This document shows, in pieces, positions 1 to 56,177 of a DNA stretch of 64,000 bases. This DNA comes from Longimicrobiales bacterium. GTDB lineage: Bacteria > Gemmatimonadota > Gemmatimonadetes > Longimicrobiales > Gaopeijiaceae. Every line of letters begins with the position of its first letter. Position 1 is the stretch's first letter. The DNA lies in contig OZ241869.1 of NCBI GenBank assembly GCA_965202805.1, forward strand, positions 2,048,001 through 2,112,000, in the 5' to 3' direction. Both the position numbers and the translations under genes were made by a program. A model generated the notes under the pieces. That model saw only the letters and a list, made by a program, of their open reading frames with translations, was not told the origin of the DNA and did not search any database.

Positions 1-676
1 GCCGGTCACCCGGCGGTCGCTCGCCAACGTGATCCTTCTCCGTCCCGGGGCGAGGGGTGCCCGGCGCGACCTCAACTGGCACCAGGTGGTCGGGATCTGG
101 TCGGTCCTGCCACTGGCCGTGATCGCGGCAACCGGGGTCACCACGTCGTATCCGGCTGTGGGAGATCGGGTCTATCCGATGGTGGGGAACGCGGTACCCG
201 CCGGGGCATGGACGGTTGGATCAGCGTCCCGGGAGGTGGAACCCGAGGGGGCGGCGATTTCGGAGGACTCCGCCCGCGTGCCGGACCCGGACCTGGGGGC
301 CGTGCTCGCAACCGCCGAGGCTTGGGCGCCGGGGTGGCGGACCCTGATCCTGAACCTGCCGCGACCCGCGGACAGTGAGGTCCGCGTCGAGGTGCGGGCG
401 GGCCGCGCAGGCCAGCCTCACAGGACCGGCTTTCTCACCCTGGACGCCGCCTCCGGCGCCGCGCGCGCATGGGAGTCCTTCGCCGACGATACGCCCACAC
501 GGCGCGCGCAGCAGTTCCTGCGGTACGCGCACACGGGGGAGTACTGGGGACTGGCCGGCCAGCTGTTGACCGGACTCTTCTCGCTGGCGGCCGCGCTCAT
601 GGTGTGGACCGGCCTTTCCCTGGCGGTGCGCCGGCTGCGCCGCTTCGTCGGGGTCCGGCGGACGCTGCGGGGATAG
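1..676 (+). CDS. PepSY-associated TM helix domain protein (5' truncated by window edge)
   Basis: Frame open from window start; 'RDLNWHQVVGIW' and 'FLRYAHTGEYWG...LMVWTG' are typical PepSY_TM His-containing helices. Confidence 0.8.
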   Translation, partial: PVTRRSLANVILLRPGARGARRDLNWHQVVGIWSVLPLAVIAATGVTTSYPAVGDRVYPMVGNAVPAGAWTVGSASREVEPEGAAISEDSARVPDPDLGAVLATAEAWAPGWRTLILNLPRPADSEVRVEVRAGRAGQPHRTGFLTLDAASGAARAWESFADDTPTRRAQQFLRYAHTGEYWGLAGQLLTGLFSLAAALMVWTGLSLAVRRLRRFVGVRRTLRG

Positions 677-5170: not shown

Positions 5171-6508
5171 CTAGCGGACAGCCTCCGGCAGCCGCTTCAC
5201 GATGATCGTGGGGACGTCGAATTCGTCCGTCTCGACGAACGCGACCATGCCACCGGGGCCGAACGCGGCGGGCATCGGCGTCTCCTCCAGCGAGAACGTG
5301 CCGACGTACTCGCCCTCCGCGGCGAGGACATCGATCCATCCGTCAGGCGTCTCGTCCCTCCCCGACCCTGCGCCGGCGAACTCGAGCTGCCCCAATGGAT
5401 CGCTCCCCCACCGTAGGACCCAGATCGTCCCCTCCCAGGTCGTACGAAGATCGCGCACCAGGGGCACCTCGGGCATGAAAGCCGCGTTCGCCACCATTTC
5501 GCGCATGCCGGCCACCAGGCCCTCCATCAAGGCTGCGAACTGCGCGTGGGCGGCCTCCGGAACGTCTTCGCCCACCTCCGAGGTGGTGAACTGCGCCTCG
5601 ACGGACGCCTCGTATTCCTCCACCACCCGCGCCCGTGCGCGCTCCCGCAGGCGTTCTGTAACGGCCTGCGGGTGAAGGGGCCGGCCGACAACCCGTGGCG
5701 GGGCACCCGTCGTCCGGATCTTCACGACATACGCGGAGGAATCGGAATATGCCACCCCGCCACCGGGGAGAACATCGAACACCAGACGGGGCTCGAAGTA
5801 GGCGAGTGCGCCGTCGAGCGCGGCGAACATGTCCGAGGGGTCCTCGACCTCGATCGTGACCTGCCGCCGGGGGCGCGGTTCCCAACCCTCCGCGAACGGT
5901 ACCGGGACGGCCTCTTCCCTCTCGTCGAGAGCCACGCGGTAGATCGTGCGGTCACCCGACGTGACGGATGCTTCCCCGCGGCTGAAGCTCGCGGCCGTGC
6001 CTCGAGTCAGGAACAGCGCGCCCCCGTCCCGCGCGGGGCGCACGATCTGAGCGGAGCCGGCCCGGCCGTCGCCCGTATCCGCGAAGCGGAGCGCGCGTTC
6101 GAACGAGCCGTCCGGGCCGAACAGGAGGTAGGCGCGGTGACCCTCGTCGACGATCACGGCCCCGCCCTCGGGCCGAGCCACCATCTGCCCCACCTGCCGA
6201 AGCTCACCCGGGCCGTCGCCCATGCGTCCGAACTCCGCCGCCAGGCCTCCGATCACGTCCACGACCACGATGCGGGTGGAGGACCCTGCCTCGTCGCGAA
6301 CGTAGAGGTGACCGCGCGCGTCGAAGCCCAGGTCCGCGATCTCCGTGAACGCATCCCACCCTTCCGCCGCGATCCCGCCGATCCGGTACACCTCCTCGAA
6401 GTCGGCCTCCAGCGGACGGTCCTCGCTCACCGGCGGAGCGGACTCTCCGCCGGTTTCGCCACCGCAAGCGCCCAGCAGCGCGGCGAATACCGCGTAACGT
6501 CTTTTCAT
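5171..6508 (-). CDS. 6-bladed beta-propeller lipoprotein
   Basis: Lipobox 'LLGAC'; 'FGRMGDGPGEL' NHL-like blade; C-terminal 'IDVLAAEGEYVG...ETDEFDVPTI'; GGAGG upstream of ATG 6508. Confidence 0.75.
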   Translation of the reverse strand: MKRRYAVFAALLGACGGETGGESAPPVSEDRPLEADFEEVYRIGGIAAEGWDAFTEIADLGFDARGHLYVRDEAGSSTRIVVVDVIGGLAAEFGRMGDGPGELRQVGQMVARPEGGAVIVDEGHRAYLLFGPDGSFERALRFADTGDGRAGSAQIVRPARDGGALFLTRGTAASFSRGEASVTSGDRTIYRVALDEREEAVPVPFAEGWEPRPRRQVTIEVEDPSDMFAALDGALAYFEPRLVFDVLPGGGVAYSDSSAYVVKIRTTGAPPRVVGRPLHPQAVTERLRERARARVVEEYEASVEAQFTTSEVGEDVPEAAHAQFAALMEGLVAGMREMVANAAFMPEVPLVRDLRTTWEGTIWVLRWGSDPLGQLEFAGAGSGRDETPDGWIDVLAAEGEYVGTFSLEETPMPAAFGPGGMVAFVETDEFDVPTIIVKRLPEAVR

Positions 6509-6634
6509 CAGACAACCTCCCAGGGTCGCCAAGATAGCCGCGATTCTCCCGACCGCACAAAGAGGGTCCTTGGAAATATGGGAGGACCGGCCTCCGCCGG
6601 GTCCGAACCATCCGCCGACCGCGTCTTGCAGCGC

Positions 6635-8356
6635 CTATGCAACCTCTACGCGTATCGTGATGATGTCGATATCGTGGTATTGCTTGTGGTGTATGGACGA
6701 GGCGTAGTGGCGCAGCAGCCGCAGCGGGATTTCGTCGGCTGCGGATACTGCCGACTCGTTCAGCATGGCGAGTTGGTCTTCGATGTTCGTCTCGTCCGTC
6801 GTCGCGATGAATTCCAGGTCGGCCTCGTCGCCGTCGACCCCCGCCAGCAGAAGCAGCCGCCTCTCGCCCTTCCCCCGCCGAACAAGGATCTGAATGGTCT
6901 CCTCACCCACGGCGCGGAGACGCGTCTCCGTCGCTTCATCCCAACCCTTCCTGCCAGCGAACTTGCGCAGGAAGGCATCGATCTCCGGCCACCTGTCGGC
7001 AGTCAACCGGGTCTTGAGACGCAACCGCCGTCCTCCCGCCAATCCCCCGAGGAGCGTGAGGAGGATTACAGCGAGCCCCCCGACCGTCATCCCGTTGCCG
7101 AGCAACTCCTCCCAGGGGCCCTGGATCGCCGCCGGGTAGATCCAGTCGAGCTGGAAGGCCACGCCGAGCCAGAATGCGACACCGACGATGAGACCCTTCC
7201 GGTAGTCGAGGCCCTCCCGCAGGAGGATCTTCATGCCGAACACGAAGATCAAGGCGACGATGACCACCATGTATGCGGCCACCACCGGACCCGGTATCGC
7301 GATCAGAAGAGCAACGAACTTGGGCAGAAACGCAAAGGCGACCAACACGACACCTATGGCCACCCCGACCCGGCGTGAAGCGATTCCGGTAAGTTCGGCA
7401 ACGGCGACGCCCGAGCCATAAGTAGTGTTCGGTACGGTCCCGGCGAGACCCGAGAGCAGGTTCCCGAGTCCGTCCGCTGCGATCGCCCCCTGGATGGACC
7501 GGAAACTGATTGCCCTGGGTCTCCGCCATGACACTCGCTGAATCGAGATGCTGTCCCCGAGCGTGTCCATGGCGCTCGCCAGCGTGACCATCACGAAAGA
7601 CGGCAGAAGCGCCCAGAACTCGGGCCGAAAACTCAGGTCGATCCCTGGATAGGCCACCTCCGGCAACCCGATCCACGGAGCCTCGGCCGCCGCTGTCAGA
7701 TCGTAGATCCCGAATCCGAGGCCCGCCGTAAGGCATCCGGCAACGAGCCCCAGCGCCGGAGCCCAGATCCGTAGCGTGCCGGAGAAGTTGAGCGGAATGA
7801 GCAGGATGACCAGCAGCGTCACGCCCGCCGTGACCGGAGCCGCTGCCGGCGCCACATCAGGAGGTACGTCAGCCAGCTTGTTGAGAATCACGGGCGCGAG
7901 GGTCAGGGGAATCAGCATCAGCACGGTGCCGGCCACGGTCGGCGTGAAGACCCTGCGCAACAGCGCCATCCTGGACGCAAGGCCGAACTGGACCGCCGAG
8001 GACGCGATGATGAGAGCAGCGAGCATTCCCGGTCCGCCTTGTTCGAGGGCGGACACGCACACGGCGAGGAAGGCGCTCGTGCTTCCCATGATGAGGATGT
8101 ATCCGGCCCCGATGGGTCCCACCGTGCGTGCCTGGACGGCCGTGGTGATTCCGCAGATCACGATCGCCGAGAAGACCGCCCAGTAGAGGTACGGCTCGCT
8201 CCCGCCCGACACCGTGATCATTACCGTGGGTGTCATCACGATGCTGGCGATGCAGAGGCAGGCGAATTGCATCCCCAGCCCGGCGCTGAGCAATGGCGAA
8301 GGCCGCTCGTCGGGCTCGTAACGCACCTCGCGACTTGCCTTCGACGTGTTCGGCAT
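6635..8356 (-). CDS. NCS2 (uracil/xanthine) family permease with extra ~130-aa C-terminal soluble domain
   Basis: 'YEPDERP', 'LSAGLGMQ', 'GAIAADGLGNLLSG...PNTTY', 'FLPKFVALLIAIPGPV' NCS2 motifs; start uncertain. Confidence 0.85.
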   Translation of the reverse strand: MPNTSKASREVRYEPDERPSPLLSAGLGMQFACLCIASIVMTPTVMITVSGGSEPYLYWAVFSAIVICGITTAVQARTVGPIGAGYILIMGSTSAFLAVCVSALEQGGPGMLAALIIASSAVQFGLASRMALLRRVFTPTVAGTVLMLIPLTLAPVILNKLADVPPDVAPAAAPVTAGVTLLVILLIPLNFSGTLRIWAPALGLVAGCLTAGLGFGIYDLTAAAEAPWIGLPEVAYPGIDLSFRPEFWALLPSFVMVTLASAMDTLGDSISIQRVSWRRPRAISFRSIQGAIAADGLGNLLSGLAGTVPNTTYGSGVAVAELTGIASRRVGVAIGVVLVAFAFLPKFVALLIAIPGPVVAAYMVVIVALIFVFGMKILLREGLDYRKGLIVGVAFWLGVAFQLDWIYPAAIQGPWEELLGNGMTVGGLAVILLTLLGGLAGGRRLRLKTRLTADRWPEIDAFLRKFAGRKGWDEATETRLRAVGEETIQILVRRGKGERRLLLLAGVDGDEADLEFIATTDETNIEDQLAMLNESAVSAADEIPLRLLRHYASSIHHKQYHDIDIITIRVEVA

Positions 8357-23887: not shown

Positions 23888-25054
23888 CTACCAACCCTTC
23901 GGGGTGATGCCGGCCGCCAGCGTCCCGATCTCCGCCACCGGAAGTACCGAGATCCGGTCGTCGAGCGCGTACTCCTCATTGCCCGGATACACGACCCACA
24001 GATGCTCCAACCCGAGATCCTCCAGCGCCACCCGCATCGACCGCGTGGTTCCGGGGGCGTCCGCGAACTTGCACTCGAAACCGTATCGCTTCCCTCCCCG
24101 GAGAACGAGAAGATCGAGTTCGGCGCCGGCGTGGGTAGCCCAGTAGTACGCGTCGCGCGTCTCCAGCGCGCCAACCAGCTGCTCGACCACGAATCCCTCG
24201 AACGAGGCCCCGACTTTGGGGTGACCCAGCAACTGATCTTCTCCCGGAATGCCGAGCAGGGTGTGCAGAAGGCCCGTGTCACGGACGTACACCTTCGGCG
24301 CTTTCACCTGGCGCTTCTTCAGATTCTCGAACCAGGGCGGCAGCACGCGCAGCATGAAGGCGCCCGCCAGGATGTCGAGATAGCGTCGGGCGGTGCCTCC
24401 GCTCGATCCCAGCGCCCGTGCGAACTCCGCGGCGTTCCAGGTCTGCCCGTGGTAGTGCGCGATCATCGTCCAGAAGCGCCGCAGGCTCTCGGCCGGAATG
24501 GTGATGCCAAGCTGCGGGATGTCCCGCTCCAGAAACGTGCGCACGAAGTTGCGCCTCCAGAGCGATGACGCCCGGGTGCTGCGCGCGAGGAACGCGCGCG
24601 GGAAGCCGCCACGGCCCCAGAGAGTTCGCCAGGCATCGGTTCCCGTTTCATTCAGGCCGAAACCGCCCAGGTCGACGAGCCCGACGCGCCCGGCGAGTGA
24701 CTCCGATACGCCCTTCACCAGCTCCGGGGATGCGCTGCCCAGCAAGAGGAAACGCGCGTCGCTGCCGGGACGGTCCACCAGCACGCGCAGGGTTTCGAAG
24801 AGCGCCGGCATTCGCTGGACTTCGTCGATGATCACCAACCCACGCAGTCGGTCCAGAGTCTGTTCAGGCGTGGCCAGGCGCTGCCGGTCGACGGCGGCTT
24901 CCAGATCGAACCAGGTGCTTCCCCGGGAGTCGGCGGCGATTTGCCGGGCAAGCGTCGTTTTGCCACACTGGCGGGGACCGGTCAGCGCGGCGCAGGGATG
25001 CACTTCCAGGGCTTCGTGGATGTGCTTGGCGGGTGTCGGGCGATCAATCAGCAT
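23888..25054 (-). CDS. AAA_14 + DUF4143 ATP-binding protein
   Basis: Walker A 'GPRQCGKT', Walker B 'IIDEVQ', 'LLGSAS', 'ESLAGR', 'GGFP', 'KAPKVYVRDTGL', 'ELDL...FECK'. Confidence 0.92.
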   Translation of the reverse strand: MLIDRPTPAKHIHEALEVHPCAALTGPRQCGKTTLARQIAADSRGSTWFDLEAAVDRQRLATPEQTLDRLRGLVIIDEVQRMPALFETLRVLVDRPGSDARFLLLGSASPELVKGVSESLAGRVGLVDLGGFGLNETGTDAWRTLWGRGGFPRAFLARSTRASSLWRRNFVRTFLERDIPQLGITIPAESLRRFWTMIAHYHGQTWNAAEFARALGSSGGTARRYLDILAGAFMLRVLPPWFENLKKRQVKAPKVYVRDTGLLHTLLGIPGEDQLLGHPKVGASFEGFVVEQLVGALETRDAYYWATHAGAELDLLVLRGGKRYGFECKFADAPGTTRSMRVALEDLGLEHLWVVYPGNEEYALDDRISVLPVAEIGTLAAGITPKGW

Positions 25055-25066
25055 CACCCACAATAT

Positions 25067-25105
25067 TCCTTGCAAATCCGCAGTGCAAGTGAGGATTTTC
25101 AAGGA
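25067..25105. promoter_or_regulatory. Inverted repeat (TCCTTGCAAATCC-13nt-GGATTTTCAAGGA) just upstream of the DUF4143 ATPase
   Basis: 12/13 arm match, ending 12 nt before ATG 25054; operator or terminator role inferred. Confidence 0.5.
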
Positions 25106-25123: not shown

Positions 25124-26446
25124 CTATCCCGCCCCCGACGGCCTCCGCAGCACGCCCGCGAACAGGATCGCGCTCGACTCGCGCTCCCGGATCAGGTAGG
25201 CGAAGGGCCGGTCGGCGATCACCGACGGGGGAAGGCTCGTGACCCCGATCCCCACCGAGGTGGAGCCAGCCGCCTCCGCGCCCTCCTCGGACACCTCGAC
25301 GAAGGTCCTCTGCTTCACTTCGGAGATGTAGAGCGGAGGAGGAGTCGCGGAGATGCCCGTGAAGTCGGCGACGTTTGGCATGAAGGGGTCCGTCATGCCG
25401 AGCGACTGGAGCGTCTCCTTCAGGCTCTTGTCGTATTCGACGCGGAACCTGGGGAGCACCACCCGCACCCTTCTCGTGGTCAGCTTGTCGAGGATGCTCT
25501 CCCAGCGCGTCTCATCCATCGACCCGATCTCGTCGTCGATGTTGCTCCCGTCTGCGGGGACCAGGACCGTCATCGCGAAGGCCCCCTCGCCGAAAGGCAG
25601 GTCCACGATCTGCAGGCTGCCGTCTCGGCCGTGGGGGAATTCGCGGGTCTGGTCCATCATCGGGATCGACTCGGACTCGCCTTCAGCGATGTGGAAAGGG
25701 GCATCGGTCGTCTTCTCGGGATCGAACGCGTACTGCCATGGACCCCTGAAGTAGACCGCGTTGATGAGGAAGAGCACCGTGCGGCTGTCGATGGGCGGCT
25801 CGATGATGCTCTCGATGCGTCCGTTCGTCTTCTCCGAGACCCATTGGTTCATGGTGTCGGCCGCCGAGGCGTTGGAGAAGTCGAGCCCGGCGACCGTGGC
25901 ATCGAAGAACGCGCGCACCGTGTTCAGGAAGGTCGGCTCGACCTCGAATCCGTGCCGATACCACGCGGAGTTGGCGATCTGCGTGTTCACGGTTGAGTCC
26001 GCCATCGGCAGATTCGTCATGAGGCCGCGATAGCCGTTGTTGATGGTGTCTACCGCGACATCCGCGAACCCGAGCGTGGCCTGCATCTGATCGTACGTGG
26101 CGCCGCGGGCTCCGTTGAGCGCCATCCCGAGGGCCATGGAGGCGCTGAGCGGCGAGACGAGGACGTTCTCTTCCGGATCGGCGGCCATCGCGGCGGCGAG
26201 CAGATCCCGGGCGAAGAGGTTGCTCTTCTCGACGACTGCGGCCTCCGCCGAGGCCGAGCGCGGCGGGACGATGATCGAGTCGCCCGGGCCGGGGTCCGGG
26301 GGCTCGGGGATCGCGGGCTCGGCGGGACCGGGGTCGAGCGGGTCATCCGAGCAGGCCGGTGTCAGGATGACCGTCAGCCCGATCGCAAGGGCCAGCGCGG
26401 TGCGCGCCGTCGACGGAACGCGGGTCATGGAGGTAGCCGACTCCAT
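25124..26446 (-). CDS. Serpin (serine protease inhibitor), lipoprotein
   Basis: 'NVLVSPLSASMALGM', 'LINAVYFRGPW', hinge/RCL 'EVSEEGAEAAGSTSV', 'ADRPFAYLIRE'; lipobox 'TPAC'. Confidence 0.93.
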   Translation of the reverse strand: MESATSMTRVPSTARTALALAIGLTVILTPACSDDPLDPGPAEPAIPEPPDPGPGDSIIVPPRSASAEAAVVEKSNLFARDLLAAAMAADPEENVLVSPLSASMALGMALNGARGATYDQMQATLGFADVAVDTINNGYRGLMTNLPMADSTVNTQIANSAWYRHGFEVEPTFLNTVRAFFDATVAGLDFSNASAADTMNQWVSEKTNGRIESIIEPPIDSRTVLFLINAVYFRGPWQYAFDPEKTTDAPFHIAEGESESIPMMDQTREFPHGRDGSLQIVDLPFGEGAFAMTVLVPADGSNIDDEIGSMDETRWESILDKLTTRRVRVVLPRFRVEYDKSLKETLQSLGMTDPFMPNVADFTGISATPPPLYISEVKQRTFVEVSEEGAEAAGSTSVGIGVTSLPPSVIADRPFAYLIRERESSAILFAGVLRRPSGAG

Positions 26447-33597: not shown

Positions 33598-34176
33598 TCA
33601 GTTCGGAGTCGGCGGCGTGACGACCGCGAGGCGGCCGCCGTCGTCCGGGGTCACCAGGATCACGTCTCGCGCGTCCGCGGAGACGATGGTGCTGAGAACC
33701 ATGGCCGGGTCGCCGGAGGAGTCGGACGGGTCCGGGTTGGCGGCCGGGCTGGTGGTCGAATCGTCGAAGGACTGCGTCGGCGGGTCGGGAAGGAAGCTCA
33801 CTTCGAGCGCGTGACGCCCGGGCGGGATCGGGAAGCGCTCGTGGACGCTGACGGTGCGGGCCCGCGCGCTCGACCGACCCACCGGCCCGGCCCGGAGGGT
33901 GTCACCGTCCAGCAGAATCGTGAGCCGGAAGGACACCGCTTCGTCCGTGCACACCTCCGTCGGGCGCATGTGCGGGAGGACGCCCCTCAGTTCGGCCTCC
34001 GTCGGCGGACGGCATCGCCGGTTGGATGGAGCCGGGATGCGCCACGACACCCGCAGTTCGGCGGCGTCCCCGGCCGAGGAGCGCCACGCGACCCGGGACA
34101 GGAGGACGATCCCGAGCAGGACGGTCACCGTCAGGGCCACGGCCGCCAGCTTCCGCGTGAACGTCGCTGCGGTCAT
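33598..34176 (-). CDS. Single-TM hypothetical protein translationally coupled to the cytochrome b fusion
   Basis: ATGA overlap at 34173-34176; TM helix then 'CRPPTEAEL...HMRPTEVC'. Confidence 0.7.
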   Translation of the reverse strand: MTAATFTRKLAAVALTVTVLLGIVLLSRVAWRSSAGDAAELRVSWRIPAPSNRRCRPPTEAELRGVLPHMRPTEVCTDEAVSFRLTILLDGDTLRAGPVGRSSARARTVSVHERFPIPPGRHALEVSFLPDPPTQSFDDSTTSPAANPDPSDSSGDPAMVLSTIVSADARDVILVTPDDGGRLAVVTPPTPN

Positions 34177-35714
34177 CGGGCCGCCGCCTTCCCGGGCACC
34201 TCGCACTCCGTGTCGATGGCGATCCCGTCTTCCCGGGTGGGGGCGTCGAGGAGCCCCAGCTCGCTCGCGAAATCAGCCCGGGCGCTCGCGAGGGCCTGCT
34301 CGTCGAAGCCGGACGCGTAGACGACCCGTACTCTCCGCCGGTCGACGCGCGCCTGCAGCTCCGCCTCTCTTTCGTGGTACAGCCGCTCGACGAGCCACCG
34401 GGGCCCCTCCCGGCCCCAGCAGTCGCGGGGCGGACACGCCACCACCAGAACACCGCCCACCCCGGCGCGCACCAGGTACTCCACCACCGAACTGTGCAGG
34501 TTGCCCGCGCACGACACCAGGAAGCGGCGGGAGTCCCTCCCCTGGCCCGGACCGGCCGCGGACCGGCCGCACCCCACCACCACGATGTCCCCGCGCCCGA
34601 GCACCCGGCCTGCCGCGAACTCCCTGACGCGGCTCAGCTGGTCCCTGCCGGTGCGGCCGGGCGGCCCCACCCCCATGGGCGCGCACGACCCGGCGCAAAT
34701 GCCGCAACTGACGCAGGCGGCCGGATTCACGCGGGCGACCAGACCCTCGCGCCCGTCGGTGCGTTCGACCATCCGGATGGCGTCCCAGGGACAGTCCACG
34801 TAGCACTGCTCGCACCCGGTGCACAGGCGCGTCGACGCCACCGAGGGCGCCGGCCGGCGGTCGGCGCGGGGACGCGTCAGGAGCGGCACGGCCAGCAGGG
34901 CCGTCCCCACCACCGCCGCGGCGAGCCACACCACCCCGGCGGAGGCGGAGCGGGCCGCCGGCAGCCAGAAGGCGTAGAAGACGTCCAGCACCACCTCCCC
35001 GGGCACCCGCAGCAGCTCCGCCGCGGGCGCCAGCGGGACGGGCAGAAGAACCGCCGCCGCGACCAGCAGCCCGACCGTCCACCGGAGGAGCGGCCGCGGA
35101 GGCAGCATGACCGGCCGGGCGACCCGGGACACGTGCAGCCAGAGAAAGATCACGATGCCGACCGGCAGCGCGATGTGCAGGAAGAGGTTCATGAAGAAGA
35201 AGGCGGCGGGCAGCGGGTCGGCGCCCGAGAAAGTCCGGGATATCGGTTCGGAGAAGAGCGGCAGGGCGTCGAGCAGCCGCGCACCCTCGGCGGCGAGCAA
35301 CTGCCCCTGCGCGTCCCACACCATCACGTAGCCCGTCCAGCCGCAGACGTACAGCAGGAACACCAGGAAGACGCCCGAAACCCAGGCGAGCGCGCGCGGC
35401 CCCCAGCTGCGGCCCTGGCAGAACATCCGCAGGGCGTGGGCGGCCGCGGCGACCACGGCCAGGTCCGCCGCGTACCGGTGGAGCGACCGAATCCAGCGCC
35501 CTCCCCACACCTGGGCATCGATGCGGGCGACGGATTCCCAGGGTGCCCCGATGCGGTAGAACAGGACCAGATAGAGCCCGGTGACGAGCACGACCGCCAG
35601 GCACGCCACCACCAGCGCGCCGGACTGGTAGAGCGGGTTCCACTTCCAGCCATGGAGGCGGTCCACCCAGGAGTCGACGCGCCGCAGGGATTGCCCGAGG
35701 ATTCGCTTGAGCAT
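34173..35714 (-). CDS. Cytochrome b/b6 N-terminal + 2x[4Fe-4S] ferredoxin + MvhD/FlpD-like [2Fe-2S] fusion protein
   Basis: Heme His pairs 'RSLHRYAAD...AAHALR' and 'LFLHIAL...WLHV'; 'CTGCEQCYVDCP', 'CVSCGICAGSC'; 'VGC', 'SCAG', 'ACPPRDCWGREG'. Confidence 0.88.
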   Translation of the reverse strand: MLKRILGQSLRRVDSWVDRLHGWKWNPLYQSGALVVACLAVVLVTGLYLVLFYRIGAPWESVARIDAQVWGGRWIRSLHRYAADLAVVAAAAHALRMFCQGRSWGPRALAWVSGVFLVFLLYVCGWTGYVMVWDAQGQLLAAEGARLLDALPLFSEPISRTFSGADPLPAAFFFMNLFLHIALPVGIVIFLWLHVSRVARPVMLPPRPLLRWTVGLLVAAAVLLPVPLAPAAELLRVPGEVVLDVFYAFWLPAARSASAGVVWLAAAVVGTALLAVPLLTRPRADRRPAPSVASTRLCTGCEQCYVDCPWDAIRMVERTDGREGLVARVNPAACVSCGICAGSCAPMGVGPPGRTGRDQLSRVREFAAGRVLGRGDIVVVGCGRSAAGPGQGRDSRRFLVSCAGNLHSSVVEYLVRAGVGGVLVVACPPRDCWGREGPRWLVERLYHEREAELQARVDRRRVRVVYASGFDEQALASARADFASELGLLDAPTREDGIAIDTECEVPGKAAAR

Positions 35715-35829
35715 GGTGGTGTTCGCCGATTCGGCCGGAATGGACGTCGGGGGATCGCGCTCGCGTCCGCCTCCAGCCGCAACCGATTTCAGCCGGTTTC
35801 GCCGGAGGCCGCGAACGCTTGCGCGAGCA

Positions 35830-35856
35830 TAAGTACCATATCATCATGACCTTATC
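35830..35856. promoter_or_regulatory. AT-rich imperfect palindrome (ATAAG-N17-CTTAT) in divergent promoter region; possible operator
   Basis: ataagtaccatatcatcatgaccttat; only the 5-bp ends pair. Confidence 0.3.
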
Positions 35857-35963
35857 CAGCATAGAGCACCGCGACGTGACCGAAGGCTCGCATGACCTCC
35901 AGGACGGCCGGCAACGCCCTTCCGGGGCGCGCCTGACCCCCAAACCCGAAGGAGCGCACACCC

Positions 35964-36149
35964 ATGGCCGACTCCGTCTCCCCTTCACCGCCCCCGGGTG
36001 ACGAGGACGGGACCCCGGTTCCCCTCATGCAACGCCTCTACGACAGCCCGTTCCTGCTTCTCGCCGCGTGCATCCTGGTGATGTTCGTGTTCTTCACGGC
36101 GTGGGGCATGATCGAAATCATGTCGCTCGAACCCGCACCTTTGCCGTAG
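35964..36149 (+). CDS. Small single-TM subunit of the heme-copper complex (subunit IIa-like)
   Basis: AAGGAG RBS; 'PLMQRLYDSPFLLL...FTAWGMIEI' TM directly before subunit II. Confidence 0.75.
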   Translation: MADSVSPSPPPGDEDGTPVPLMQRLYDSPFLLLAACILVMFVFFTAWGMIEIMSLEPAPLP

Positions 36150-36164: not shown

Positions 36165-36728
36165 ATGTACCGAACGGGAATCGAACCGCCGGAACGGATC
36201 TGGTGGAAGAAGATCGACCGCCACGAGAAGGTATGGGTGTGGATCGCCTTCGCGTGGTGCATGGTGCTCTTCGCGATGATGCCCCTCTGGCACCTGCGGG
36301 GCGGCCAGAACCCCTCCGGGATCCGGCACCGGGTGGAGCCGGCCGACTACCAGGCGAGGGTCACGGAGTTCATCCGGGAATACCAGGTGGGCACCGACAG
36401 CGGCTTCCCCGTAGTCGAACCGCCTCCGGGAAGCGATGTCTACCTGCAGGCGACGAGCTTCGCCTGGATGCCGGTGCTGCGGTTGCAACAGGGAGCCGAG
36501 TACGTCCTCCATCTCTCGTCGCTGGACGTGAACCACGGGTTCAACCTGTACCCCCTCAACATCAATTTCCAGGTCGTTCCCGGATATGACTACGGCCTCC
36601 GGGTGGTCCCCAACGAGCCCGGTGAGTTCCACATCATATGCAACGAGTTCTGCGGAATCGGCCACCACCTGATGGTCGGCAAGATCATCGTCGAGCCGGC
36701 GGACGCGGAACAGGAAGGTGACCTGTGA
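36165..36728 (+). CDS. Heme-copper oxidoreductase subunit II (CuA), B-family type
   Basis: One TM; 'DVNHGF', CuA 'CNEFCGIGHHLM'. Confidence 0.93.
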   Translation: MYRTGIEPPERIWWKKIDRHEKVWVWIAFAWCMVLFAMMPLWHLRGGQNPSGIRHRVEPADYQARVTEFIREYQVGTDSGFPVVEPPPGSDVYLQATSFAWMPVLRLQQGAEYVLHLSSLDVNHGFNLYPLNINFQVVPGYDYGLRVVPNEPGEFHIICNEFCGIGHHLMVGKIIVEPADAEQEGDL

Positions 36729-38446
36729 ACATCTTCCGGACCTGCCCGACGACCGGCCTTCAGGTGCATCGAACCGCCGACCGCCTCATTCAGGCCAACG
36801 CGGTCGCGGCGACCGTGGCGCTCCTCATCGGGGGAATCGCGGCGCTGCTCGTCCTGCTGACGCGCTGGGAGGCCGTCCTCCTCCTCGACGCCGGCATGTT
36901 CTACCGCATGCTCACCGTGCACGGCATGAACATGCTCATCTTCTTCATCATCTTCTTCGAGATGGCCGTGCTCTACTTCGCGTCCGCCGTCCTGCTCAAC
37001 TGCAGGGTGCCGGCGCCCAGGGCCGGCTGGATCGCCTTCGCGCTCATGGTCGGCGGGGCGCTCATGGTCGAGTGGACGATGTGGACGGGCCGCGCCGACG
37101 TCCTGTTCACCTCCTACGTGCCGCTGCGGGCCCACCCGCTCTTCTATCTGGGGGTGATCCTGTTCGCGGTCGGCGCCCTGACCGTGGTCGGCCATTTCTT
37201 CGGCATCCTGACCGTGGCCAGGCGCGAGAATGCGTACGAGGGGTCGATGCCGCTGGTCACCTTCGGAGCACTCACCGCGGCCGCGATCGCGGCGGTCACC
37301 CTGCTGCACGGGGCGATCATCTACATCCCCACCTTCCTCTGGTCCCTCGGCCTCATGGAGGTCGATCCCCAGATGTACCGCCTGATCTGGTGGGGGCTCG
37401 GCCACTCCTCGCAGCAGATCAACGTGGCCGCCATGGTCTCGATCTGGTATCTGCTGGGCGCGCTCACGGTGGGCGCCGTGGTCCTGAACGAGAAAGTCAG
37501 CCGCACGGCGTTCGTCCTCTACGTCCTCTTCATCTCGATGGCCTCCGCGCACCACCTGCTGGTCGACCCCGGGATGGGACCGGCGTGGAAGATCTGGAAC
37601 ACCAGCTACTTCATGTACATGGCCGTTCTGGCCTCGATGCTCCACGGCTTCACCGTACCGGCCGGCATCGAATTGGGAATGCGCCTGCGGGGGGCGACCC
37701 AGGGGCTCTTCGGGTGGCTGAAGCGGGCCCCCTGGGGCGATCCCGGATTCAGCTCGCTGGTCTTCTCCATCGTGGTGTTCGGCTTCGTGGGCGGGATCAC
37801 GGGAGTGACCTTCGGCACCGAACAGATCAACATCATCGCCCACAACACGCTGCGGATTCCCGGCCACTTCCACGCCACCGTGGTGTCGGGGACGGCGATG
37901 GCCTTCATGGGGATCACCTACTACGTCATTCCGCTCATCTTCCGGCGCGAGATCGCCTTCTACCCGCTGGCCCGCATCCAGCCCTACCTGTTCGCCGTCG
38001 GCATGCTGGTGTTCTCGATGGCGATGACCTTCGCGGGCACCTTCGGCGTTCCGCGCAGGCACTGGAACGCCTCGTTCACGGGCGCGGTCTTCCAGCCCGA
38101 GTTCTCGCCCGCCGTCAACCTGATCATCGGCGTGATGGCGGTGGGCGGGCTGATCGCCATCGCCGGCGGCGCCATCTACATCGTGGTGACGGTGGTGTCG
38201 GTGTTCTTCGGGAAGAAGATGGCCGCGGACGATTCGGGGCTGGGCGCCGAGAGACGCGGTCTGCCTCCGGGCATCACCCATCCGCCACGCGCCCTGGTGG
38301 CGGAGGACAGCGAGGCGCTCGAACCCTCGGGCCGCATGGGACCGGTGCCGGGGACGATGGTGCTGGTGTTTATCTTCCTGGCCGCGTTCATCACCTACTA
38401 CTTCGTGAACTGGACGCTGCTTTCGTTCCTGTGGGAGGTCGGATGA
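36725..38446 (+). CDS. Heme-copper superfamily subunit I, probable eNOR-type nitric oxide reductase
   Basis: Six His ligands ('TVHG', 'GHSSQQ', 'AHH', 'GHFH'); helix VI H+4 position is Gln, not Tyr; GTG start overlapping subunit II stop. Confidence 0.8.
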   Translation: MNIFRTCPTTGLQVHRTADRLIQANAVAATVALLIGGIAALLVLLTRWEAVLLLDAGMFYRMLTVHGMNMLIFFIIFFEMAVLYFASAVLLNCRVPAPRAGWIAFALMVGGALMVEWTMWTGRADVLFTSYVPLRAHPLFYLGVILFAVGALTVVGHFFGILTVARRENAYEGSMPLVTFGALTAAAIAAVTLLHGAIIYIPTFLWSLGLMEVDPQMYRLIWWGLGHSSQQINVAAMVSIWYLLGALTVGAVVLNEKVSRTAFVLYVLFISMASAHHLLVDPGMGPAWKIWNTSYFMYMAVLASMLHGFTVPAGIELGMRLRGATQGLFGWLKRAPWGDPGFSSLVFSIVVFGFVGGITGVTFGTEQINIIAHNTLRIPGHFHATVVSGTAMAFMGITYYVIPLIFRREIAFYPLARIQPYLFAVGMLVFSMAMTFAGTFGVPRRHWNASFTGAVFQPEFSPAVNLIIGVMAVGGLIAIAGGAIYIVVTVVSVFFGKKMAADDSGLGAERRGLPPGITHPPRALVAEDSEALEPSGRMGPVPGTMVLVFIFLAAFITYYFVNWTLLSFLWEVG

Positions 38447-39468
38447 GAGAGGGGAGGGACGGTAGCGGGGCCGCCGCCGGGGCTGCCGCGGGCGGGGAGG
38501 GCCACGGGCCGACGGGCGTGAACGGTGCGCCCTCGTACGCGGCCGTTCGCGGGGCGATGGCGGCGATGGCGGCGCTGCTCGCGATCACGGTCGCGTGGTG
38601 GGCACTGGCGCTCTGGCCGGTGGCGGGGGTCCCGCCGGCGTGGCTGGAGCGTGCCCGCCAGGTGTGCTTCAACGCGGGTCCCTCAGGTCTCCCCGACGCG
38701 TCCGGATGGATGCTCCTGGTGGGCCAGCCCATCGGCATGCTGGCGGTGCTGATGGTTGTCGCGGGGGATGCGGTGCGGGCGGGGCTGCGGCGGGCGCGGG
38801 GCAAACCGGCGGGCCGGGTTGCGCTCGCGGCGGCCGCCGGGGCGGTCGTGGCGGGGGCGGCGCTGGCCGGGGTGCGCGTCGCATCGGTTCCGGGGGACGC
38901 GGAGTGGCTGGAGGCCGCCCGCGCCGAGGTGCCCGCCACCTACCCGCGCCTGGACCGCCGCCTTCCGGCCATCGAGCTCGTCGACCAGCGCGGCGAAGCG
39001 TTCACGTGGGAGCGCATCGCGGGCCGCCCGGCGCTCCTCACCTTCGGCTTCGGGCACTGCGAGACCGTCTGTCCCATGACGGTCATGAACGCGCGCCGGG
39101 TCCAGGACCGGTTCCGGGGGGAGGGCCGGAAGATGGCGCTGGTGGTGATCACGCTCGATCCCTGGCGCGACACCCCGTCCCGGCTTCCCGCCCTGGCGCG
39201 ACAGTTCCACCTCGGCGGCGAGGGTTCGCATGCGAATGCGGAGGAAGGCGGCGAAGGCGGGGAGGGCGCGGGGTCCTTCCTGCTTTCCGGCTCGGTAGAT
39301 GAGGTCAACGCGGCGCTGGACGCGCTGCAGGTGGCTCGCGAGCGGGTGCCGCGCACGGGAGACATCGTGCACCCGGCTCTCGTGTACCTGCTGGACGCGG
39401 AGGGTACGGTGGCCTACGCCGCGAGCGCGCACGCCGACCTGATCGAGGAGCTGGCGCGCCGCATGTAG
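38443..39468 (+). CDS. SCO/SenC copper chaperone with N-terminal membrane domain
   Basis: 'LVDQRG', 'FGFGHCETVCP' (CxxxC), 'ITLDPWRDTP', 'IVHPALVYLLD'. Confidence 0.88.
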   Translation: MREGRDGSGAAAGAAAGGEGHGPTGVNGAPSYAAVRGAMAAMAALLAITVAWWALALWPVAGVPPAWLERARQVCFNAGPSGLPDASGWMLLVGQPIGMLAVLMVVAGDAVRAGLRRARGKPAGRVALAAAAGAVVAGAALAGVRVASVPGDAEWLEAARAEVPATYPRLDRRLPAIELVDQRGEAFTWERIAGRPALLTFGFGHCETVCPMTVMNARRVQDRFRGEGRKMALVVITLDPWRDTPSRLPALARQFHLGGEGSHANAEEGGEGGEGAGSFLLSGSVDEVNAALDALQVARERVPRTGDIVHPALVYLLDAEGTVAYAASAHADLIEELARRM

Positions 39469-45662: not shown

Positions 45663-46913
45663 TTACGGCCCCAGCGCCCCGATCGGAATCACGCTCACCC
45701 CGTCTTCCCGCGTGTAGCCGTAGCCGCTGCTCACGATCACACCGAGCGCTGCCGGCTCGCCCATGCGCTTCGGGTCCACCCGTTGCGCCAGTCGCAGCAG
45801 GTTGGCGGCTCCCGCGTCCGCCCGGCCCTCGCCAAGCTTGACCTCGAAGGCCGCCCAGCGGCCGTCGTTGGCCTGCACGATCGCGTCCACCTCCAGACCG
45901 CCCTTCTCGCGGTAGTGGAAGACCTCGGCATCGGCGGCCTGGGCATAGACGCGCAGATCCCGGATCACCATCGACTCGAAGAGGAGCCCAAGGAAGTCGA
46001 GGTCGCGAAGCAGCCGAGGAGGCGTCGCGCGGACGGCGGCCACGGCGAGCGACGGGTCCGCAAGGTGCCGGACCGGCTTGCTCCTCAGAACCGATCTCGA
46101 TCTCAGATGCGTGGGCCATGACGGCTGGTTCTCCACGATCATGATGCGCTCCAGCGCTCGAAGGTAGTCCGCCGCGGTGTGCTCCCTGATGGCGGACATG
46201 CCTTCGCCGGTGTCCGAGGCGAGGGTTGCGGTCGCCACGGGTGTCGCGACGTTCCTCGCCAGAGACCGAAGGAGCATGCCCACCCGCACAGGGTCTCGCT
46301 TTCTGCCATCGCCATTGGCGATGTCGAGGCGCCGGATCTCGTCGAGGTGATCCCTGTTGGCACGGAGCGCCGTTTGCGTGCTGCGCCCAAGGTTGACGGG
46401 CCAGCCGCCTACGCAGATCAGCGCCGCCAGGTCATCGAGGAGGACTACCGATCTGCCTGCCCTGGCGGGCGTCCCTTCCAGGAGACCGGCCAGCGAAATT
46501 TCGCCGGACGAATGACCCAACTCGAACAGTGAGAGCGGGCGCATGCGGAGACGCGTCAGGCGTCCGGCACCGGTATGTCGGGTGGCGTCGTCAGCCGGCA
46601 CCGCCGAACCGGTGAGGATGAACTGACCCGGCTGGCGCCGATCGTCCACGGCCCTGCGCACGTGGTTCCAGATCGCCGGCTCCAGCTGCCATTCGTCGAT
46701 CAACCGCGGGACGTTGCCGACCAGCACGCGGGCCGGTTCGAGGCTGGCCAGGCGTCGCGCCACATCGTCGACGTCGAGCCTCACTTCGCTGGCGGCGATC
46801 TGCTGCGCCGTGGTGGTCTTTCCGCAGGCCCGAGGGCCCTCAATCACGACTGCGCCGGTGGCCTGCAAGCGCTCCGCCAGTTCGCGGTCGACGATTCTGG
46901 GCTGGTAAGTCAA
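45663..46913 (-). CDS. AAA_14 + DUF4143 ATP-binding protein (second, divergent paralogue)
   Basis: 'YQPRIVD', 'GPRACGKT', 'LIDEWQ', 'FILTGSA', 'HTGAGR', 'LADPSLA', 'EVDAIV...FEVKLG'; TTG start assumed. Confidence 0.9.
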   Translation of the reverse strand: MTYQPRIVDRELAERLQATGAVVIEGPRACGKTTTAQQIAASEVRLDVDDVARRLASLEPARVLVGNVPRLIDEWQLEPAIWNHVRRAVDDRRQPGQFILTGSAVPADDATRHTGAGRLTRLRMRPLSLFELGHSSGEISLAGLLEGTPARAGRSVVLLDDLAALICVGGWPVNLGRSTQTALRANRDHLDEIRRLDIANGDGRKRDPVRVGMLLRSLARNVATPVATATLASDTGEGMSAIREHTAADYLRALERIMIVENQPSWPTHLRSRSVLRSKPVRHLADPSLAVAAVRATPPRLLRDLDFLGLLFESMVIRDLRVYAQAADAEVFHYREKGGLEVDAIVQANDGRWAAFEVKLGEGRADAGAANLLRLAQRVDPKRMGEPAALGVIVSSGYGYTREDGVSVIPIGALGP

Positions 46914-47020
46914 GTTGGTACCGGCATGGGGGCAGGCGAATCCGGTTGATCGAAGATGGCCGGGGGTCTGTCGGGCGCAGGCGCACGAGGATGGTAACCG
47001 TAGGGAAGACTTCGGAAAAG

Positions 47021-47112
47021 GTGTCAGCGTCAGATTCGGCATCGTATCAGCGTCAGAAATAGCGTATTACCGACGACAGAAATATCTCATCGTCAACGTC
47101 AGAAATGGCGCA
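47021..47112. repeat. 4 x 23-bp degenerate direct repeats (core CGTCAGAAAT) upstream of DUF4143 ATPase
   Basis: Cores at 47028, 47051, 47074 and 47097, exact 23-bp period. Confidence 0.8.
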
Positions 47113-53879: not shown

Positions 53880-56030
53880 CTAAGGCGCCAGCGGGTCCGG
53901 CCGCAACTGGAACTGGAGGACCTTGCTGGGCGTTCCCTTGCCGCCCTCCATGTGGAAGGGCGCGCGCGTGCTCACGGTCGCCCACAGGCCCCTTCCCTTC
54001 CATCCCCCGTCCGGGTCGTCGATGCGGCCGTCCAGCCACTTGGTGTAGAAGCCGAGCGGATAGGGGACCCGCAGAACGATCCATTCACCGTCCACGAGGG
54101 CCAGCAGCCCTTCGGAGGCGTTGCCGGTGTTGATGGGCACGTTATCGCCCAGCCCGAAGACGTTGAACTGGTCGACCCAGGTGTAGTAGCTCGCCTCGGC
54201 GCTGCCGGGAGCGGTCACACCCCGGATCTGCGGGAGCGGCTCCCGGTGGAAGGTCCAGCCCTCCGGGCAATGCTGGCCCGTGGCCTCCGGACCGTTGAGC
54301 GGCCCCGTGCACTTCGTGCGGTCGAAGCTGGCCATGTGCCCGCTGGCGAGCGCCACCCACATCACCCCGTTGCGGTCGATGTCCCCGCCGCGGGGCGAGA
54401 ACCCTTCGATGGGCGCGCCCGAGACGTCGAGCGGCAGCTCGTACAGCTCCGCGAGCGCCGTCGCCGGGGGGTTCGGACCCGGATCCAGCCGGACCACCGC
54501 CCCCGGGTAACCGAGTGACGTCGCCCACACTGACCCGTCCGGAGCAGGCGCGACGGAGTAGAAGCCCGCCACGACCCGCTTGTCCATCGCGGGGTCGACC
54601 GGCTCGTCGGGCTCGACGTAGTCGTCGCGCCGGCCGTTGCCGTTTGTGTCCAGGATGAGCGCGGTCCAGCCCTGCGAGGCCTCCTCGTCGCCGGTCTCCT
54701 CGAACATCCTCGTATTGAGCCAGCCCACGACCTGTCCGCCGCCACTCGTCCAGAGCGTGTTGTCCTCGTCCTCGGCGAACATGAGATGGTGCGTGCTGAA
54801 GCAGGTGCGGATATGGGTGAGCTCCTGCGTCTCCGGGTCCCAGAGCTGGAGATGGCGCCGGGCGCTGTTCGTCGGAAAGAGCCTCGCCGACGGGTGGTCC
54901 GACCCCTCGCGACAGAAGTCCGGATTCGCGGGCGGAGCCACCGTGGAGGTGAGCCAGAGCCGCCCCCGCTCGTCCAACATCGGGTTGTGGACGTTGTTCT
55001 TGCTCGTCCAGATGACTTCGTCTCCCCAGTAGGGCGAGGGCTCGGGCATGCCCGGACCCGATGCGGGCTGCGTGCTCGCATCGCGCACCGTCAGCGGGAT
55101 CCGGGTCGCCGCGTGGTCCACCGGATCCAGCACCGGCACATAGTCCGCGCTGGCCTCGAGCGCCCCGTAGATGGGACCATAGGCGTTGACCGTCGGATCG
55201 CGCCGGTCGGTGGAGACCTCGTCGTGGAGGTAAGCCCTGGGATCGGCCCAGTCCCACAGCGTGACGACCACGTTGCGCTCGATGCCCTCGGGCCGCGGAG
55301 GCGCCTCCGCCGGCACTTCGCCCGCCGCGATGCGGTCGGTCCAGTCCGCGAACATCTCGAGCATCCGCTGCCGGCCCATGCGGTTGAAGCCGCCGCTCAT
55401 GCCCCCGCCGGCCTGCCCCGACTTGATGCGCCGGTCCCAAGCGTCCACCGAGGAGGCGAACTCGCCCAGTTCCGCCGGGATGTTGCGGGTGCCGAGGCCG
55501 CCCATCTGATGGCAGGCCGTGCAGTTGCCCGACTTCAGGAGCCGCATGAGCTGCGCCTGGTGCTCAAGGTTGGGCGAGATCCCGTTCCCCTCGTCACCGG
55601 TTCCCGGGAACTCGTGCTCCTCCGGCACCTGGAGCAGCGACAGCCAGTAGCCTGCGGGGTAGTATTCCGCGGCTGCGCGGGCGTCGGGCGCCGGCACCGC
55701 GGTCAGGTCCAGGGCCGCGCCCGGCGAGGCGCCCACCTTGTCCGAATCCACCAGGCCGTACCCGCGCACCCACACCTCATAGCTCGCCTCGGGCAGGTCG
55801 GGAATCAGGTATCGCCCCTCGTCGTCGGTTACGACGATCCGGGCGAAGCGGGTGGGGAGGTCGAGCGTCTCCGCGATCACCCAGACGCCGGCTTCGGGAC
55901 CGTTCGCGCCGGTCACGACGCCGCTGATGTCGTCGGCATCAATGGCGGGTGTGTCGGCAGCGGGTTCGCAGGCGGTGAGCGCGGTCAGGGCCGCGACTGC
56001 GCCCGCGCAAAAAATACGCCAATTCCTCAT
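53880..56030 (-). CDS. Lipoprotein with carboxypeptidase-regulatory-like domain, single CxxCH heme-c motif and beta-propeller
   Basis: Lipobox 'LTAC'; 'GPEAGVWVIAET...VTDDEGRY...WVRGYGLVDS'; 'CTACHQ'; GGAGG 6 nt before ATG. Confidence 0.8.
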   Translation of the reverse strand: MRNWRIFCAGAVAALTALTACEPAADTPAIDADDISGVVTGANGPEAGVWVIAETLDLPTRFARIVVTDDEGRYLIPDLPEASYEVWVRGYGLVDSDKVGASPGAALDLTAVPAPDARAAAEYYPAGYWLSLLQVPEEHEFPGTGDEGNGISPNLEHQAQLMRLLKSGNCTACHQMGGLGTRNIPAELGEFASSVDAWDRRIKSGQAGGGMSGGFNRMGRQRMLEMFADWTDRIAAGEVPAEAPPRPEGIERNVVVTLWDWADPRAYLHDEVSTDRRDPTVNAYGPIYGALEASADYVPVLDPVDHAATRIPLTVRDASTQPASGPGMPEPSPYWGDEVIWTSKNNVHNPMLDERGRLWLTSTVAPPANPDFCREGSDHPSARLFPTNSARRHLQLWDPETQELTHIRTCFSTHHLMFAEDEDNTLWTSGGGQVVGWLNTRMFEETGDEEASQGWTALILDTNGNGRRDDYVEPDEPVDPAMDKRVVAGFYSVAPAPDGSVWATSLGYPGAVVRLDPGPNPPATALAELYELPLDVSGAPIEGFSPRGGDIDRNGVMWVALASGHMASFDRTKCTGPLNGPEATGQHCPEGWTFHREPLPQIRGVTAPGSAEASYYTWVDQFNVFGLGDNVPINTGNASEGLLALVDGEWIVLRVPYPLGFYTKWLDGRIDDPDGGWKGRGLWATVSTRAPFHMEGGKGTPSKVLQFQLRPDPLAP

Positions 56031-56177
56031 GTCCATCCTCCCGCTCAGGCCTTCCCGAGACACACAACCCGGGTACTCTGATTGATAGGCGGGAGCGTGA
56101 TGGCGGGCCAGCGACGAGGGTTCGTGTGTAGTACAGATCACAGAGTGGCAACGGTCGTCAAGCAGGAGACGCGGTAG

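Follow-up and report, generated by a model that had tools for sequence, protein, structure and literature searches.

A cytochrome b carrying 4Fe-4S and MvhD domains was named in 2014 as the PDWF-FeS clade, with representatives in Magnetospirillum and Turneriella (Kao & Hunte 2014, PMC4122944), and the accessible sections of that paper mention neither a linkage to the nitric oxide (NO) reductase eNOR nor a C-terminal periplasmic domain or a function of the clade. Murali's dataset gives T. parva the score eNOR=1, and the accessible part of the bioRxiv version of Murali et al. holds an eNOR neighbourhood figure for AMB-1. More recently, two "bc1 chain C-like" cytochrome b-FeS genes were reported from the eNOR operon of Ferrigenium straubiae and found in its proteome (bioRxiv 10.64898/2026.01.22.701106); the accessible text calls them unusual and a possible Ferrigenium marker, and speculates on a role in NAD+ reduction. 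Here we analyse a stretch of 64,000 nucleotides (the window) of a Longimicrobiales bacterium of the Gemmatimonadota (assembly GCA_965202805.1, contig OZ241869.1, positions 2,048,001 to 2,112,000), in which two genes encoding a protein of this kind lie head-to-head with a predicted eNOR operon. The module proves genuine and widely distributed, and it is closely bound to the main eNOR lineage, for which cytochrome b-FeS genes are the rule and not a peculiarity of Ferrigenium.

eNOR is described as about as widespread as cNOR and qNOR, and NO reduction without O2 reduction, with heme As, has been demonstrated for the R. marinus enzyme only (PMC11214002, as far as accessible). We found no account of its physiological electron donor or assembly route in the literature searched. 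An appendix table contains one protein with b6, Fe-S and FlpD domains (PMC8756737, in part), and the accessible parts of PMC11214002 and its bioRxiv version, PMC8879329, PMC6431628 and PMC10734462 do not discuss the fusion. The full-text literature, in which subscription journals are largely uncovered, yielded no functional study of it. Thus, the statement of a preliminary description of this locus that the architecture lacks characterisation stands for its function but not for the architecture itself, which was named in 2014, with eNOR-operon genes following in the 2026 preprint. Another point of comparison is CcoG, a Cu(II) reductase serving oxidase assembly in which two [4Fe-4S] clusters are combined with an Ig-like domain in the periplasm (PMC7558416, in part).

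Architecture of the split cytochrome b

The two genes encode the halves of one membrane protein, as homologues with both parts fused show. Relatives are encoded on 476 stretches in GTDB, and the best 80 of these (the 80 GTDB loci) were analysed alongside the window. The features of the locus are as follows.

33598..34176, minus strand: 192-aa open reading frame (ORF), the split-off C-terminus, with one transmembrane helix and a putative periplasmic beta-sandwich bearing an (H/N)-M-R finger flanked by Cys55 and Cys76 (from fusion in homologues, hhalign, model and conservation)
34173..35714, minus strand: 513-aa ORF, cytochrome b helices A-F followed by a 2x[4Fe-4S] ferredoxin (C298-C344) and an MvhD/FlpD [2Fe-2S] domain (from Pfam, alignment and homologue model)
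35820..35848, plus strand: conserved element TTGC...CATATCATCATG in the divergent gap, resembling a promoter or operator (recognised by eye among relatives; derived pattern in 37/80 GTDB loci)
35892..35936, plus strand: scar of a deleted Rrf2-family regulator gene, a 14-codon remnant (intact Rrf2 gene at the same place in locus L001)
35964..36149, plus strand: 61-aa protein upstream of subunit II with a single transmembrane helix by hydropathy (present in 76/80 loci)
36165..36728, plus strand: predicted eNOR subunit II with the CuA motif H124, C159, E161, C163, H167, M170
36725..38446, plus strand: predicted eNOR subunit I, a B-family-related heme-copper oxidoreductase with HSSQQ, i.e. Gln for the cross-link Tyr (from alignment to ba3)
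38443..39468, plus strand: SCO1/SenC copper chaperone with three N-terminal hydrophobic helices (from family match and hydropathy)

The preliminary description had recognised a di-heme cytochrome b, two [4Fe-4S] motifs and an MvhD domain in the 513-aa protein, an ATGA coupling to the small gene (overlap at 34173-34176) and a 249-bp divergent region shared with the eNOR operon (35715-35963), and all of these were confirmed. Pfam matches over cut-off comprise Cytochrome_B (residues 27-195), Fer4_7 (298-344) and FlpD (400-486; 31.2 bits against 22.3). A 50%-cluster library gave 401 matches at 1e-30, of which 150 were listed, and the protein (P0001) was aligned with the 134 representatives on that list that are 480 aa or longer (135 rows). 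The four heme His (H79, H93, H180, H194), the eight ferredoxin Cys and the MvhD residues C382, C402 and C427 are kept in 132-135 rows (C382 in 132), and C432 in 112. C402, C427 and C432 align with Cys of a solved MvhD (E 0.05 for the 513-aa protein, 3e-13 for a homologue at locus L102), while C382 lies outside that alignment. The ferredoxin-MvhD unit (residues 272-487) further resembles the HdrA2 C-terminus (profile positions 553-769), although at 49 versus 1100 bits this match is far below cut-off, and we take the unit to be analogous to that of QmoB. In ESM Atlas, only clusters of hypothetical proteins were hit, plus one FlpD-bearing cluster at 0.80.

An AlphaFold2 model of the fused homologue P0137 (121 alignment rows) was confident in all domains (pLDDT 96.4, pTM 0.93) and matched the full-length cytochrome b 9ftz_H with Z 23.0 and a root-mean-square deviation of 3.3 over 263 aligned residues; matches to cytochromes b of Rieske/cytochrome b complexes in general ranged from Z 19 to 23 over about 260 residues. 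The membrane part had been called b6-like, which holds for the four heme His that align with cytochrome b6 (E 3e-16) but understates its extent, as it continues beyond b6 with helix E, an ef loop and helix F. From cytochrome b topology, the ferredoxin-MvhD unit would be inserted after helix F on the cytoplasmic side. Forms of 899-2565 aa were absent at 1e-20 from the 8000 candidates searched, though the evidence from this is weak.

The protein shares with the cytochromes b of bc1 and b6f complexes the four His for two b hemes and the fold, but it is without a Rieske or c1/f partner, its Qo and Qi residues are degenerate, the heme ci Cys is missing, and it additionally contains the Fe-S insertion and the beta-sandwich on what would be the cytoplasmic and periplasmic side, respectively. 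The Qo-motif position reads LDVFY, without the canonical P(E/D)W(Y/F), and the Qo Trp is present in 43/135 rows. Likewise, the b6 motif GYWA (cd1 W-(G/A)) is aligned to GQLL, position 140 being L, V or I in 123/135 rows. At the positions that we take to hold the Qi His (five after the last heme ligand) and the heme ci Cys, we found A/S/N/T and no His (position 199) and Q/R/H/Y with no Cys among the common residues (position 30). The ef-loop Asp D244 is kept in 126/135 rows and Y/F247 is conserved; D-W is present in 24 of the 25 rows from outside Gemmatimonadota, where DW(F/Y)Y is kept and the Pro is variable. Compared to the PDWF-FeS clade, the 4Fe-4S and MvhD fusion and the lack of a Rieske gene in the cluster are shared, as far as the accessible text goes, while the motif LDVFY and the splitting in two are different here.

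The small gene represents the split C-terminus of the same polypeptide because 97 of the 104 representatives with at least 590 aa (out of 134) end in a domain homologous to it, and hhalign matched the small protein to this fused domain with a probability of 100. Thus, the preliminary description was right about one hydrophobic helix (residues 9-27) and the segment C55-RPPT..H69-M70-R71..C76, but not about a separate partner. Since the alignment end-points run from residues 29..534 of the P0137 model to 28..342 of the cytochrome b chain in many rows, the transmembrane helix of the small protein is probably equivalent to helix G of cytochrome b, following the helix numbering that we presume, and the beta-sandwich would be exposed to the periplasm. 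Modelled alone, this domain is a generic beta-sandwich without a match at Z 8 or above among 48161 chains in a VIA fold search (best Z 7.7) and without a Foldseek match at E 0.001; it lacks a cofactor motif and is unlike both cupredoxins and Rieske heads. Of 109 aligned rows, 106 retain C55 and C76, 101 have M70 and 103 have R71. Position 69 is mostly His (64 rows) or Asn (40 rows), and some fused forms lack both Cys. A type-1-like copper site made of H-M and the two Cys was ruled out by the His to Asn exchange in 40/109 rows and the occasional Cys loss. A disulfide between C55 and C76 is more likely than a metal site given this pattern, and we read the element as a putative disulfide-stapled docking finger. 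A complex prediction of the cytochrome b part and the small protein with subunit II (score 0.01, mark 0.32) was counted for neither side.

Linkage to one lineage of eNOR

The operon on the other side of the divergent region is predicted to encode an eNOR. Its subunit I gave its best match to B-family oxidases of the ba3 type (E 6e-48), all six His ligands being kept, and HSSQQ (H227-S-S-Q-Q) is aligned where ba3 enzymes carry HPVVY or HPIVY; Gln at the site of the cross-link Tyr is diagnostic for eNOR (PMC8756737, in part). Subunit II has an intact CuA motif and matches the CuA-type family. The 61-aa protein has no Pfam or NCBIfam match and is probably what we take to be a subunit IIa-like small subunit. 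The SCO protein contains three N-terminal hydrophobic helices instead of a single anchor and an extra Cys (VCFNAG), and ctaA is present elsewhere in the genome.

The fusion and HxxQQ-type subunit I, whose co-occurrence the preliminary description had made the measure of its proposal, are found together in nearly all close relatives. In the 80 GTDB loci, 79 of them titled Gemmatimonadota or its orders and one Acidimicrobiia, subunit II was present in 77, subunit I in 73 and HxxQQ in 71, and the three loci without subunit II begin 155 bp or less from the fusion match. A word-based search returned 2643 proteins, and named members belong to Gammaproteobacteria, Thermodesulfobacteriota, Bacteroidota and an alphaproteobacterial plasmid. 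A metagenome scan with an alignment of ten diverse homologues confirmed at least 603 relatives; among the best 80, HxxQQ was found in 52 loci, a partial subunit I in nine and none in 19, and 17 of these 19 have less than 1.8 kb of upstream sequence. The other two are L122, where the locus ends inside the gene, and L095, where a decayed, cytochrome-b-only ORF (6020-6826) has 6 kb upstream free of eNOR.

At the genome level, 301 Gemmatimonadota genomes of at least 90% completeness were surveyed with a subunit I threshold of 1e-70. The fusion was present in 68, a subunit I match in 75 and both in 66; thus, a close eNOR accompanies the fusion in 66/68 genomes and the fusion accompanies the close eNOR in 66/66. 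Of the two fusion-only genomes, one has a contig that breaks off within subunit I (G290) and the other a decayed remnant (G122), with half a fusion and an SCO fragment but no eNOR (L179 9363-11037). Nine genomes have subunit I only. Five of these matches are at 34-35% identity, and the two checked are of the HPLVY oxygen-reductase type; the remaining four are eNOR-like (HG[S/T]QQ, 47-49% identity) in genomes without an FlpD match. The latter belong with a second eNOR-like lineage, HG[A/S/T]QQ, of Gemmatimonadota, Thermus and Thermomicrobium without a fusion nearby (L175, L176, L177, L178, L184, L185). The Thermus and Thermomicrobium plasmid enzymes (HGAQQ) have no fusion at their loci, and among 12 plasmid records of eNOR-like enzymes a full match to the fusion was seen in only one. 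Because the HG[A/S/T]QQ enzymes do without it, the fusion is the partner of the main eNOR lineage only. In a quick subunit I tree, the fusion-less group joins long branches with a support of 89, and on this basis its monophyly is not claimed. The linkage counts do not amount to a statistical test since kin are not independent, nor was weight given to the correlation between the distance matrices of subunit II and the cytochrome b part (r 0.93), as genes that are linked have a common history.

MvhD domains invite comparison with hydrogenase and heterodisulfide reductase systems: FlpD is over cut-off, the Cys pattern is aligned and the ferredoxin-MvhD end resembles HdrA2. Homologues accompanying Mvh/Hdr instead of eNOR, the outcome that would have spoken against the preliminary description, were not seen, and the linkage is to HxxQQ subunit I. 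Mvh/Hdr linkage was rejected: the genome analysed (98% complete, one contig) has no NiFe hydrogenase (PF00374) and no second FlpD, the 513-aa protein being its only FlpD and only cytochrome b (PF00033) match, and there is no Mvh/Hdr cluster among the recurring neighbours, HdrA itself not having been profile-searched. A NiFe hydrogenase motif occurred in one of 161 loci (L056 34-3846), where it belongs to a membrane-bound uptake-type enzyme with its own cytochrome b, directly downstream of SCO.

Gene neighbourhood, regulation and genomic background

With 60 of 110 picked cluster representatives scanned, the genes recurring within 7.5 kb were subunits I and II, SCO/cyoE, CtaA, hemerythrin, Crp/Fnr, NirS-like (labelled from reading the sequence), NirK-like and NnrS. 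In gene order, the fusion keeps company with assembly genes: it follows cyoE and SCO in Defluviimonas, lies between SCO and a subunit-I-like paralogue at L154, and precedes a CtaA-like ORF at L180. The L154 locus also encodes a further cytochrome b that carries 2Fe-2S, FAD and NAD domains as a fusion, and this pairing also appears in the Ferrigenium operon, where a cytochrome b-FeS gene is found with sco1 and heme o synthase according to the accessible text of the preprint; the window lacks the FAD/NAD paralogue. NuoF-like FMN/NADH genes adjoin the fusion at L102 (6422-11381) and L103 (279-3663), with a partial match at L109, and at L102 the NuoF-like gene sits between two fusion copies. A degenerate subunit-I paralogue (FWGGGH, heme ligands partly lost) was observed in 22/81 non-GTDB and 0/80 GTDB loci, e.g. 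at L096 (10899-12377), L102 (434-1882) and L154 (12132-13598), and is perhaps the "eNOR scaffold" of the Ferrigenium preprint.

The 249-bp gap contains the scar of a deleted Rrf2 regulator gene, as L001 carries an intact 132-aa Rrf2 gene at the corresponding place (7822-7427). Rrf2 matches occur in 69/80 GTDB loci and are absent from the genome analysed; the short form of the gap is spanned by contigs of sequencing runs from three studies. The eNOR operon may be deregulated in this lineage. An AT-rich conserved element ending CATATCATCATG is a candidate promoter or Rrf2 operator, the derived pattern being found in 37/80 GTDB loci without a chance control, and a sigma-70 scan of the region found no site.

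The preliminary description had noted neither a Rieske protein nor a cytochrome c1 in the window, and indeed no coding-like ORF of the window contains a Rieske motif and only one contains CxxCH (53880-56141, minus strand, 753 aa). Throughout the genome, the two PF00355 matches belong to a SUF-like operon and an oxygenase-like ORF, and there is no respiratory Rieske protein. The genome does hold an operon resembling alternative complex III (ACIII), with a pentaheme cytochrome, a 1006-aa subunit, NrfD and a monoheme cytochrome, whose subunits we assume to correspond to the Act proteins, and it encodes an A-type oxidase, ctaA and complex I. The module as a substitute for a missing complex III was rejected because this ACIII-like operon leaves no such gap to fill. 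NirK, nirS and nosZ are not found over cut-off; across the survey, nirK occurs in 15/68 fusion genomes, i.e. 53 lack it, versus 20/233 others. A cluster resembling an NAD-linked formate dehydrogenase and including a second NuoF-like gene (G000 C1 82473-87150) is an unlinked candidate for a cytoplasmic donor. Elsewhere in the window, we presume from sequence a serpin-like lipoprotein (25124-26446, minus strand) and two AAA+/DUF4143-like ATPases (23888-25102 and 45663-47042, both minus strand).

Direction and purpose of electron transfer

The protein probably carries electrons across the cell membrane. Since the two genes are nearly always found next to eNOR, they are likely to encode a so far overlooked part of this N2O-producing enzyme, needed either for its operation or for its assembly. 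A bc1-style Q-cycle cannot run because there is no Rieske partner. We therefore consider it rather probable that the protein acts as a linear wire from cytoplasm to periplasm that serves eNOR. A low-potential cytoplasmic donor, either an NAD(P)H flavoprotein or a ferredoxin, would dock on the MvhD [2Fe-2S] cluster of the cytoplasmic loop, and electrons would pass over the two [4Fe-4S] clusters to heme bH, heme bL and an acceptor on the periplasmic side, where the beta-sandwich finger and the altered Qo region together would make up the acceptor site. Given the established potentials of such clusters and hemes, outward is the downhill direction, as the low-potential type of the cytoplasmic clusters and the repeated recruitment of NAD(H) flavoproteins indicate. 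By comparison, the "quinol:NO" module of the preliminary description is weakened, with degenerate Qo hallmarks and Fe-S clusters that would lie on the cytoplasmic side.

As for the purpose, our tentative first choice is that the wire supplies the maturation or reactivation of eNOR metal centres. Like CcoG or a transmembrane metal reductase, the protein would provide reducing power for building or re-activating these centres. Candidate targets are CuA, by way of Cu(I) or Sco thiols, the active site, by way of Fe(II), and the enzyme in an oxidised or NO-blocked state. This is favoured because of the placement among assembly genes, the retention beside ACIII and the CcoG analogy. The likeness to CcoG/FixG consists in a membrane redox protein among heme-copper assembly genes, with a pair of [4Fe-4S] clusters and a beta-sandwich on the periplasmic side, as far as the published text was accessible; in contrast, there is no FixG match in Pfam or the listed NCBIfam rows, a di-heme cytochrome b and an MvhD domain are present instead, and metal reduction is an analogy only. 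NosR, MsrQ and the FRD reductases are further systems for comparison.

Several observations weigh against this picture. The second eNOR-like lineage has a CuA-type subunit II and no fusion nearby, so CuA assembly does not everywhere depend on the fusion, and the H-M-R finger is not a fixed metal ligand since position 69 is Asn in 40/109 rows. The 513-aa protein shows no Pfam homology to FixG/CcoG. Partners linked to NAD(H) are rare, being seen in 3-4 of 161 loci and in no Gemmatimonadota locus. A quinone site may survive, considering the ef-loop Asp in 126/135 and D-W in 24/25 rows. Finally, at least three long homologues (P0235, P0239, P0245) end in a cytochrome c domain, and RME88945 is cited with a cytochrome c terminus in an appendix table (PMC8756737, in part).

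These cytochrome c termini fit catalytic delivery better, and together with the frequent lack of nirK they keep catalytic NO removal close behind as a possible, if somewhat doubtful, purpose: the same outward wire would feed the turnover of eNOR through a periplasmic cytochrome c, through CuA, or by lateral transfer from heme bL onto the low-spin heme in subunit I. The tight linkage to eNOR, the NuoF/FNR partners and the Rrf2 regulator in 69/80 loci are consistent with such a role, and the 53 fusion genomes without nirK, like the genome analysed without nirK, nirS and nosZ, suit NO removal rather than full denitrification. However, the periplasmic domain has neither a cofactor motif nor any likeness to a cupredoxin or Rieske head, ACIII and c-type cytochromes are already available in the genome, and the genes are placed among assembly genes, not beside subunit I; moreover, purified R. 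marinus eNOR was active with N,N,N',N'-tetramethyl-p-phenylenediamine (TMPD)/ascorbate (PMC11214002, in part). If true, such a route from NAD(P)H to NO would be independent of quinone and conserve little energy overall, as would be appropriate for clearing NO.

Quinol oxidation at a remnant Qo site, or reverse flow, with one electron passed to eNOR and the other through the hemes to the cytoplasmic Fe-S clusters, appears unlikely. It would explain why the full cytochrome b fold is retained with its ef loop (Z 23.0 over 263 aligned residues), why D244 and Y/F247 are conserved and why DW(F/Y)Y persists outside Gemmatimonadota, a motif counted as a Qo variant by Kao & Hunte (PMC4122944, in part). 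The Ferrigenium preprint, in its accessible part, proposes a quinol:NAD+ oxidoreductase that draws energy from NO reduction (bioRxiv 10.64898/2026.01.22.701106), a direction opposite to the outward flow favoured here. Nevertheless, no respiratory Rieske gene exists in the locus or genome, the cd1 Trp and the following small residue are replaced, the motif reads LDVFY in our protein, and electron transfer from b hemes to [4Fe-4S] clusters is steeply uphill.

A Qmo-like donor:quinone oxidoreductase, i.e. an outward wire ending on menaquinone at the remnant Qo site and merely co-regulated with eNOR under NO stress, is improbable: it fits the HdrA2-like ferredoxin-MvhD unit, the conserved D244 and the NuoF/FNR partners, but leaves the near-obligate linkage to one eNOR lineage, the joint loss in G122 and the conserved periplasmic domain unexplained, and complex I is present in the genome.

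A near-obligate redox partner is a precise knock-out target in culturable hosts such as Magnetospirillum and Defluviimonas; it would explain what is needed for the expression of active eNOR and would divide eNORs into lineages with and without a partner. The protein would also be a natural example of a cytochrome b that functions with no Rieske protein, a point relevant to the modular assembly of complex III. We even entertain, although we doubt it, that main-lineage eNOR is in vivo not a two-subunit cytochrome c:NO reductase but an enzyme with an obligatory cytochrome b partner that bypasses quinone and complex III and joins the cytoplasmic NAD(H)/ferredoxin pools directly to NO reduction across the membrane. 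This partner would derive from the cytochrome b of complex III, rewired by the ferredoxin-MvhD arm of heterodisulfide reductase. In that case, it would represent a new kind of respiratory module, which may run backwards in iron oxidisers.

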